A DNA stretch of 8,565 nucleotides, taken from the IMG/VR virus record IMGVR_UViG_2706794492_000018; one strand, 5' to 3'. The DNA comes from a virus (taxonomy: Duplodnaviria; Heunggongvirae; Uroviricota; Caudoviricetes). Position numbers and translations under genes: made by a program. Under the pieces are notes generated by a model that ran no database searches, was not told the origin of the DNA, and saw only the letters and a list, made by a program, of their open reading frames with translations. This document shows positions 260-984 of this stretch, piece by piece; positions within the stretch are counted from its first letter, which is position 1; every line of letters starts with the position of its first letter.

Positions 260-327
260 TTAACCCCTTGTAATTCATCGCCATAATTGATTTAATTCAC
301 AAATAAAACTATAACATGGTGAAATTA

Positions 328-984
328 ATGAAAAAAAACACAGATGATGGGGCTAAAATTTACACACCACTTACCCTAAAGCTTTATGACTGGTGGGTTT
401 TGGGAGTATCAAATCGTCTTGCATGGGGATGTCCTACAAAGGAACACCTTCTTCCACACTTTCTGGAACATTTAGGTAACAACCATCTGGATATTGGTGT
501 TGGAACTGGGTTTTACCTTACTCACGTACCTGAGAGTAGTCTGATATCTTTAATGGATTTGAACGAAGCTAGCCTGAACGCGGCATCTACAAGGGCTGGG
601 GAATCAAAAATTAAACATAAAATTAGCCATGATGTTTTTGAACCTTATCCCGCGGCGTTACATGGTCAATTTGATTCCATTTCCATGTTTTACCTTCTTC
701 ACTGCCTGCCTGGAAATATATCTACAAAAAGCTGTGTAATACGCAATGCGGCGCAGGCCTTAACTGACGATGGAACTCTATACGGAGCCACAATTCTTGG
801 CGATGGAGTTGTGCACAATAGCTTCGGTCAAAAACTGATGCGCATTTACAATCAGAAAGGCATCTTTTCAAACACAAAAGATTCCGAAGAAGGCTTAACA
901 CATATACTCTCAGAGCATTTCGAGAATGTTAAAACCAAGGTTCAAGGTACTGTAGTAATGTTTTCCGCTTCAGGGAAAAAATAG
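328..984 (+). CDS. Class I (Rossmann-fold) SAM-dependent methyltransferase, substrate unknown
   Basis: ORF track 316..984. Glycine-rich SAM-binding motif I (LDIGVGTGFY), an acidic post-I residue (LMDLNE) and a hydrophobic motif (FDSISMFYLLHCLP). No DPPY/NPPW or PCQ motifs, so not an obvious DNA methyltransferase. I place the start at ATG 328 because GGTGA at 318..322 sits 5 nt upstream as a Shine-Dalgarno; ATG 316 has none. A weak sigma70-like element (ttaacc-N17-cataat, 260..288) lies upstream. AT-rich coding sequence. Confidence 0.75.
   Translation: MKKNTDDGAKIYTPLTLKLYDWWVLGVSNRLAWGCPTKEHLLPHFLEHLGNNHLDIGVGTGFYLTHVPESSLISLMDLNEASLNAASTRAGESKIKHKISHDVFEPYPAALHGQFDSISMFYLLHCLPGNISTKSCVIRNAAQALTDDGTLYGATILGDGVVHNSFGQKLMRIYNQKGIFSNTKDSEEGLTHILSEHFENVKTKVQGTVVMFSASGKK

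Follow-up and report, generated by a model that had tools for sequence, protein, structure and literature searches.

The window analysed here is the whole 8,565-nucleotide (nt) stretch of the IMG/VR viral record IMGVR_UViG_2706794492_000018, and the subject of this text is its gene for a class I S-adenosylmethionine (SAM)-dependent methyltransferase. Sequence matching to complete genomes places the window, at 100% identity, in the chromosome of Escherichia coli O157:H7, within a lambdoid prophage that the literature names CP-933X. The gene stands between a remnant of the tail fibre assembly gene tfa and a yciGFE-katN cassette, which is followed by an intact tfa and the tail-fibre genes. Judged by sequence comparison, it is an intact allele of the gene known as ybcY in the literature on uropathogenic E. 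coli and K-12, where it belongs to the prophage DLP12.

The methyltransferase gene

The initial annotation had placed a methyltransferase gene at the open reading frame (ORF) 316-984. This ORF is real, and in O157:H7 genomes with 100% identity to the window, RefSeq annotates exactly the same frame as 'class I SAM-dependent methyltransferase' (WP_000239881). In comparisons with orthologs, the ratio of non-synonymous to synonymous substitution rates (dN/dS) amounts to 0.10-0.19, an alignment of 36 orthologs has 58 invariant columns, and the AlphaFold2 (AF2) model reaches a predicted local distance difference test (pLDDT) value of 90.6. For these reasons, the ORF is a coding gene under purifying selection and not a chance ORF. 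Among the near-identical alleles of E. coli, Shigella, Escherichia albertii and phage ev243, dN/dS varies from 0 to 0.57, with very few substitutions behind these values.

The end of the frame as first given stands, while its start does not, as translation probably begins 12 nt downstream, at ATG 328. This start is favoured because Met5 of the 222-residue (aa) ORF is invariant among orthologs, the match to the profile PHROG 2132 starts at residue 5, and the Prokaryotic Genome Annotation Pipeline (PGAP) itself annotates the 218-aa form in strain NC101. Furthermore, the published -10 element described below would put the transcription start near 322, which argues against ATG 316.

Allelic variants of the gene exist. 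The full-length cluster comprises 6589 member sequences, and the separate cluster of the truncated 161-aa allele P0028 comprises 445. In two E. coli genomes (L009/L010, 8001-8798), window 652-792 (141 nt) is duplicated in tandem inside the 265-aa allele P0001, which thereby gains about 47 residues within the catalytic domain.

Fold and family of the protein

The Pfam models Methyltransf_12, _23, _25 and _11 all exceed their gathering cut-offs. Motif I is present as GVGTG at residues 61-65 (nt 496-510), and Asp81 closes the predicted strand 76-81. Both elements are invariant in the 36 orthologs and invariant or nearly so across bacteria and fungi. The AF2 model, with a predicted template modelling (pTM) score of 0.87, contains seven strands in class I topology. 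The protein is a class I SAM-dependent methyltransferase, in line with the SAM-binding motifs on which the initial annotation had relied. Neither a signal peptide nor a membrane segment is predicted in it. The isoelectric point (pI) of the window allele is 6.9, and the family median is 8.9.

The lack of DNA-methyltransferase motifs reported initially was borne out. The motifs (D/N/S)PP(Y/F/W) and PC(Q/N) do not occur in the protein, which is a single 218-aa domain with no target-recognition domain and no match to the DNA-methylase Pfam families. An isolated ENV at residue 203, in a C-terminal stretch that is not conserved, is taken as coincidental. Likewise, the absence of a partner was confirmed: the annotation of the 20 kb to each side shows neither a restriction enzyme nor a specificity subunit nor any other partner, and none was found in other genera either. 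A search with PADLOC yielded no defence system, returning only a marginal generic hit to mad2 (E 0.0033, 14 bits).

Searches of curated families (Pfam, NCBIfam) and of PDB sequences return generic class I domains or matches to the SAM core only. The best PDB sequence matches, to JHAMT and UbiG, are confined to the SAM core with E values of about 1e-3 to 4e-5 (single sequence and profile; UbiG at 1e-3), and the PDB holds no solved structure of the YbcY family. The fold comparison yields only class I methyltransferases in a flat ranking. Most of these are small-molecule, lipid or natural-product enzymes, and no DNA methyltransferase is among the top structural matches. The initial annotation had seen no family assignment beyond the fold. 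This is correct for curated functional families, none of which accepts the protein, but not for sequence families, as it can be placed in PHROG 2132/ybcY. The match to this profile runs end to end (E 7.9e-157; profile 1-218 of 218, residues 5-222), and the window protein is a typical member of a group whose annotated function is unknown. There is also no sign of a well-characterised housekeeping methyltransferase, since the best NCBIfam equivalogs (CpaM, RquA and PmtA) reach 12.8-17.4 bits against cut-offs of 162-390, and no synteny is shared across genera.

Distribution in E. coli and phages

The K-12 counterpart is a frameshifted methyltransferase pseudogene in DLP12, located between two tfa remnants and next to appY/ompT. 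In blastn alignments, window 30-1031 is colinear with K-12 at 97% and with phage ev243 at 99% identity. Of 5426 complete E. coli genomes, 3857 contain the segment 260-1031 with 95-100% identity. The coding region is present in 3799 of the 5426 (~70%; at least 80% of the gene covered at at least 95% identity), with up to four copies per genome. A protein with at least 99% identity is found in fifteen phage records, including ev243, 2G7b, the PhiR series, Kati and Turner. In IMG/VR, 167 viral contigs encode a relative, and many of the 80 listed have the gene no more than about 1.5 kb from the contig end.

The gene order in ev243 is int - ompT - hydrolase - tfa remnant - methyltransferase - tail fibre - lom - J. 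The position between tfa and int/att corresponds to the non-essential arm in genomes of the lambda type. An upstream ompT is shared by O157, ev243, NC101 and 2015C-4944. In NC101, a B2 strain, only tRNA-Arg (argU), an int remnant, a tfa remnant, the methyltransferase gene and ompT are left at the DLP12 site (L097, 3872-6856). In this one decayed case examined, the methyltransferase gene and ompT are both intact side by side in a prophage that is otherwise decayed, which suggests that the two have been domesticated. The intact gene speaks for selective retention and not for hitch-hiking, albeit the K-12 frameshift limits this argument by showing that the gene can be lost.

Copies with 99-100% identity are also found on short contigs of metagenome bins named 'Bacillus sp.' and 'Planococcaceae' (L015, L024) and in the Bacillus thuringiensis plasmid record HM037272. 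These most likely represent contamination of the records with E. coli or phage DNA.

The wider family in bacteria, plasmids and fungi

Orthologs with 50-70% identity stand alone on the chromosomes of Enterobacter, Citrobacter, Salmonella, Yersinia, Proteus, Erwinia and Pantoea, and furthermore on those of Pasteurellaceae, Pseudomonas, Xanthomonadales and Oxalobacteraceae. As far out as Pseudomonas and fungi, family members retain 37-50% identity, the fungal relatives being 37-41% identical over the full length of the window protein, and the family reaches across Proteobacteria, Actinobacteria and fungi. A profile search against 1.84 billion cluster representatives returned 1746 clusters at E <=0.001 and 428 at E <=1e-30. 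Most matches among the 150 best listed clusters cover nearly the whole profile. From E. coli to fungi and Rhodococcus equi, the conserved residues are Y16, Y24-D25, C39, H57, motif I, D81, R93, D120-S121, H129-C130, K138, N186 and D189. The source names of 20 distant cluster representatives are 'SAM-dependent methyltransferase', 'UbiE' and, in one case, 'vrtF'.

The genomic neighbourhoods were surveyed at 80 genome loci by clustering all ORFs, and no neighbour is common to several genera. The recurrent neighbours, namely crotonase-like, CorA and GATase genes, are limited to Pseudomonas loci. The neighbours differ among E. coli, Enterobacter, Salmonella, Klebsiella plasmids, Erwinia and Pseudomonas. 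An antisense ORF inside the methyltransferase gene, met in the same clustering, is spurious. Domain fusions of the 'Rosetta stone' type were sought among the longer family members, and only extended N-termini without domains and one eukaryotic RCC1 fusion were found.

Several relatives reside on plasmids. Homologs occur on about 600 Klebsiella plasmids. On the hypervirulence-type plasmid pFRPDR_1 of K. pneumoniae (L094, 5645-7648), the homolog adjoins rmpA-rmpD-rmpC and peg-344, and on a conjugative IncF Klebsiella plasmid (L012) it adjoins zigA and an iron ABC transporter. The adjacency to rmpADC may be incidental, because the IncF plasmid, which has no rmpA, contains the same methyltransferase and iron-ABC region. 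In Erwinia amylovora pEA29 (L095), the homolog lies beside a choline transporter and msrA, and in the vap island of R. equi (pVAPA1643, L096) beside virR.

Transcription signals and neighbouring elements

The coordinates of the features in the window are collected in Table 1.

Table 1. Features at and around the methyltransferase gene (window coordinates)
Feature	Position	Strand	Basis
Truncated tfa remnant, tfaX-like, 82-aa ORF, divergent from the methyltransferase gene	11-259	-	ORF, PHROG, RefSeq partial tfa
Candidate sigma-70-like promoter TTAACC-16-CATAAT	260-287	+	consensus scan; predicted
Candidate sigma-70-like promoter TTGATT-17-TATAAC, overlapping the first	287-292 / 310-315	+	sequence read directly; predicted
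Methyltransferase coding sequence as annotated, ybcY ortholog, 222 aa	316-984	+	ORF list, RefSeq
Shine-Dalgarno-like GGTGA ahead of ATG 328	318-322	+	
Probable true methyltransferase coding sequence, 218 aa, 24.0 kDa	328-984	+	orthologs, PHROG profile, PGAP
Intrinsic terminator: 38-nt hairpin 990-1027, then TTTAATTTTT	990-1037	+	predicted
Cargo cassette yciGFE-katN, 2.8 kb, between methyltransferase terminator and tfa	1032-3832	+	
AT-rich leader, 450-nt spacer between methyltransferase terminator and yciG	start of cassette 1032-3832	+	
yciG	1482-1664	+	cassette
yciF	1743-2243	+	cassette
yciE	2280-2786	+	cassette
katN, Mn catalase gene	2805-3695	+	cassette
Cassette's own terminator	~3783-3815	+	
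Intact tail fibre assembly gene tfa, end of prophage late operon	3815-4396	-	

A promoter and terminator of its own, both putative, had been ascribed to the gene, and predictions for both could be reproduced. Two overlapping candidate promoters with sigma-70-like hexamers precede the gene. The hexamers of the second are those given for K-12 ybcY by Shimada et al. 2014 (PMC3946193), who observed binding of RpoD holoenzyme to the K-12 ybcY/tfaX spacer in vitro and flagged this spacer as H-NS bound. The K-12 and window spacers are 97% identical. Downstream, the predicted hairpin 990-1027 together with TTTAATTTTT has a folding energy of -18.1 kcal/mol (z = -3.2). In the ancestral arrangement, this hairpin probably ends both the methyltransferase and the late tail-fibre transcripts, as it lies 29 nt from the stop codon of the convergent tfa. 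The description of the setting as very AT-rich also holds: the methyltransferase gene has a GC content of 40.7% (35% at third codon positions, GC3) and the spacer 3' of it 31.4%, compared with 53% in the tail-fibre genes.

The convergent neighbour of the gene in most E. coli is tfa. In the window, the cassette separates the two. Colinearity with K-12 and ev243 stops at 1031 and restarts at 3833, inside the 3' end of tfa (blastn), and the two homology blocks stand 29 nt apart in K-12. Thus, 1032-3832 is a 2.8-kb insertion. The O157 gene arrangement is found in only 343-345 of the 5426 complete E. coli genomes. Co-transcription of the methyltransferase gene with yciGFE-katN was considered and ruled out by the strong terminator, the 450-nt AT-rich spacer and the lack of the insertion in most genomes.

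In E. coli ZJ3920 (L099, 2641-10771) and in L009/L010, a lambdoid prophage bearing the methyltransferase gene is inserted in ompW, beside the chromosomal trpA-yciG-yciF-yciE. A phage at the ompW site of a katN-bearing donor could have gained yciGFE-katN by aberrant excision or recombination. The gene order of the window is not explained by one single event of this kind.

In the tfa remnant, the C-terminal half matches PHROG 2341 and tail-fibre-assembly PHROGs. Its 3' end (35-166) and that of the intact tfa (3857-3988) form a 132-nt direct repeat with 88% identity. This repeat brackets all of the cargo, so recombination could delete it. The Rfam model IS009 scores above its gathering score at 3855-4053 (229.5 vs 117 bits) and just under it at 33-236 (109.1 vs 117 bits).

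In other genomes, RefSeq lists a 45-aa antisense ORF ('nucleocapsid protein' or hypothetical) over the 3' end of the methyltransferase gene and the terminator (L011 9668-9805, L098 5670-5807; window equivalent ~929-1066). It looks like an annotation artefact and is missing in the window because the insertion begins at 1032.

The tail-fibre gene at 4396-7317 (minus strand) contains three 132-nt tandem repeats (5555-5950), whose translation is a repeated peptide unit, and, near the C-terminus (4510-4741), His-rich repeats of the GAHTHS type. A long Ala/Ser-rich tract in this gene gives rise to many spurious overlapping ORFs. Inside lom, a run of 20 N (masked bases) at 7466-7485 appears as XXXXXXXX in the ORF list.

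Proposed function

The reading preferred here, with a probability of about 0.6, is that the enzyme works in the cytoplasm on a small molecule and that its gene is expressed in lysogenic conversion. By its layout, intact ybcY is a solitary cargo gene, or 'moron', of DLP12/lambda-like prophages, sited in their non-essential arm between the tail-fibre genes and the attachment site. The description as phage-adjacent cargo is upheld by its occurrence as a separate unit in this arm, both in the lambdoid prophage and in free phages. The cargo gene encodes a soluble class I SAM-dependent methyltransferase of ~24 kDa. It would be transcribed alone, antisense to the phage late genes, from a putative sigma-70 promoter in the AT-rich, H-NS-bound spacer to the hairpin terminator shared with the convergent tfa. 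Since this sigma-70 unit is its own and runs antisense to the late genes, expression is expected from the resident prophage rather than in lytic growth.

In the enzyme, SAM is presumably held by GVGTG (61-65), D81, D106 and D120. The acceptor may lie under an N-terminal helical lid that is rich in invariant aromatic residues (Y16, Y24, W26, W27 and W37), in a site that would adjoin the family-invariant H129-C130, K138, N186 and D189. A small and probably hydrophobic or aromatic molecule is suggested as methyl acceptor. The likeliest chemistry would be O-methylation with His129 as base, although confidence in this is low. The guess is weak because the name 'vrtF' is a transferred annotation and both fungal genes that carry it lie outside polyketide clusters. 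The benefit would fall to the lysogen, through modification or detoxification of a metabolite, and not to phage DNA.

Several points weigh against this assignment. The few papers naming ybcY report no phenotype. A K-12 ybcY mutant behaved like the wild type in a Hha-toxicity test, and K-12 ybcY is in any case a frameshifted pseudogene. No conserved neighbour hints at a pathway, as shared synteny is seen only within one Pseudomonas clade. The sole functional name in the family, 'vrtF', was transferred to two fungal proteins; both fungal loci were followed, and neither is a polyketide synthase (PKS) cluster, with no PKS within 10 kb of the 'vrtF'-named genes of Trichoderma and Lachnellula. Finally, the basic family median pI would equally suit an anionic macromolecular or lipid substrate.

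A macromolecular substrate, namely RNA (a tRNA or rRNA base) or protein, is considered unlikely. The tRNA enzymes CmoA, Trm9 and METTL6 score only slightly lower than the top matches in the fold comparison. However, the single 218-aa catalytic domain has no RNA-binding extension, and no NCBIfam RNA-methyltransferase equivalog matches it. The patchy accessory distribution over prophages, plasmids, islands and solitary fungal genes is unlike that of core, syntenic housekeeping RNA methyltransferases, and the aromatic N-terminal lid would be typical of small-molecule enzymes.

A more speculative proposal, which is given a little less credence still, sees the YbcY family as a mobile host-adaptation enzyme. 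Mobile elements of host-associated bacteria would have acquired it repeatedly, and it would methylate a small molecule of the host or of competitors, or a bacterial signalling metabolite. The mobile-element cases are the DLP12-type phages with the gene beside ompT, large Klebsiella plasmids, among them hypervirulence plasmids with it beside rmpADC, the R. equi vap island with it beside virR, and pEA29. If this were true, the methylation would alter fitness or virulence regulation in the host.

It is improbable that the gene is a functionless hitch-hiking relic, kept only through its place between ompT and the tail-fibre genes. The frameshifted K-12 copy, the truncated and internally duplicated alleles P0028 and P0001 and the absence of a phenotype in the literature on ybcY agree with such a relic. 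They are opposed by the low dN/dS against orthologs, the size of the full-length cluster, the intact copy in the single decayed prophage examined and the identity kept out to Pseudomonas and fungi.

There is only a slight chance of a PmtA-like phospholipid N-methyltransferase that acts on the membrane lipids of the lysogen. The top Foldseek match is the phosphatidylethanolamine N-methyltransferase of R. thermophilum (8ys9), which is of similar size (E 7.8e-12, template modelling (TM) score 0.61-0.65). The weak match to the NCBIfam model of Legionella PmtA and the basic pI of the family point in the same direction.

Orphan DNA methyltransferases are common in phages, and the marginal PADLOC match concerns a methylation-associated defence system; nevertheless, an orphan DNA methyltransferase or an anti-restriction function shielding phage DNA is ruled out for practical purposes by the lack of DPPY/NPPY-type and PCQ motifs, of a target-recognition domain, of DNA-methylase Pfam matches and of DNA methyltransferases among the top structural matches, by transcription within the cargo arm in the direction opposite to the late genes, and by the solitary chromosomal orthologs in many genera and fungi. 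The protein is neither a DNA methyltransferase nor part of a restriction or defence system, and a role in defence or anti-defence was likewise rejected after PADLOC had given nothing beyond that generic match.

The value of the gene as a discovery is small. It is already known, because annotations of thousands of genomes list the identical protein WP_000239881 and the name ybcY has been in use for the K-12 allele for decades. It is also among the most widespread uncharacterised enzymes of E. coli, present in about 70% of complete genomes and under purifying selection, with relatives on virulence plasmids of Klebsiella, R. equi and Erwinia. Identification of the substrate would give a function to a bacterial and fungal family that counts at least 1,700 sequence clusters, and could expose a lysogenic-conversion trait of lambdoid prophages.

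Comparison with known systems

The closest known counterpart is K-12 ybcY in DLP12. It is the same gene in the same place, with the same divergent spacer and the same terminator, and window 30-1031 is 97% identical to the K-12 tfaX'-ybcY region. The copies differ in that ybcY of K-12 is frameshifted and the window copy is intact. In addition, the window contains the yciGFE-katN cassette between the methyltransferase gene and tfa, and its prophage occupies another chromosomal site and still possesses tail genes.

As a genetic unit, the gene resembles the lambdoid morons lom, bor and ompT. Like these, it is an independent AT-rich unit with a predicted promoter and terminator of its own in a non-essential arm. 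Its GC content deviates from that of its surroundings (40.7% vs 53%) and, like ompT, it is kept after decay of the prophage, as in NC101, where it persists without a phage. The products of lom, bor and ompT are outer-membrane proteins with known phenotypes, whereas the methyltransferase is a predicted cytoplasmic enzyme.

Among solved structures, the class I small-molecule enzymes compared were MM_2633 (3dtn), DhpI (3ou2), PsmD (7zgt), BelI (9fce), PmtA (8ys9), JHAMT (7ec0) and UbiG (4kdr). They share 12-21% identity with the window protein, with sequence likeness in the SAM core only. The substrate-side residues of the window protein are family-specific.

VrtF, AdaD and StpD are O-methyltransferases of fungal naphthacenedione (polyketide) biosynthesis. 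With ~240 aa, they are small class I enzymes like the window protein. InterPro PIRSF011491 presumably groups YbcY with VrtF. StpD has 244 aa and is 61% identical to VrtF (D7PHZ7). The likeness to enzymes of the VrtF/AdaD type is based on the transferred names of two fungal relatives and on the comparable size. A gene of this type would be expected in a cluster with genes for a PKS, a metallo-beta-lactamase thioesterase and an FMO. The bacterial YbcY members have no biosynthetic neighbours, and the fungal genes named 'vrtF' lie outside PKS clusters.

A distant family member is pVAPA_0470 of the R. equi vap island, with 31.6% identity over 94% of the protein (E 3e-24). It is an actinobacterial plasmid gene and not a phage gene, and its annotated ORF does not include the N-terminal lid region in the alignment. 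The gene is conserved in all three R. equi plasmid types, and 'a potential regulatory role' has only been suggested for it (PMC5434932). Like the window gene, pVAPA_0470 is a solitary gene on a mobile element, in this case a virulence element, where it is divergent from virR.

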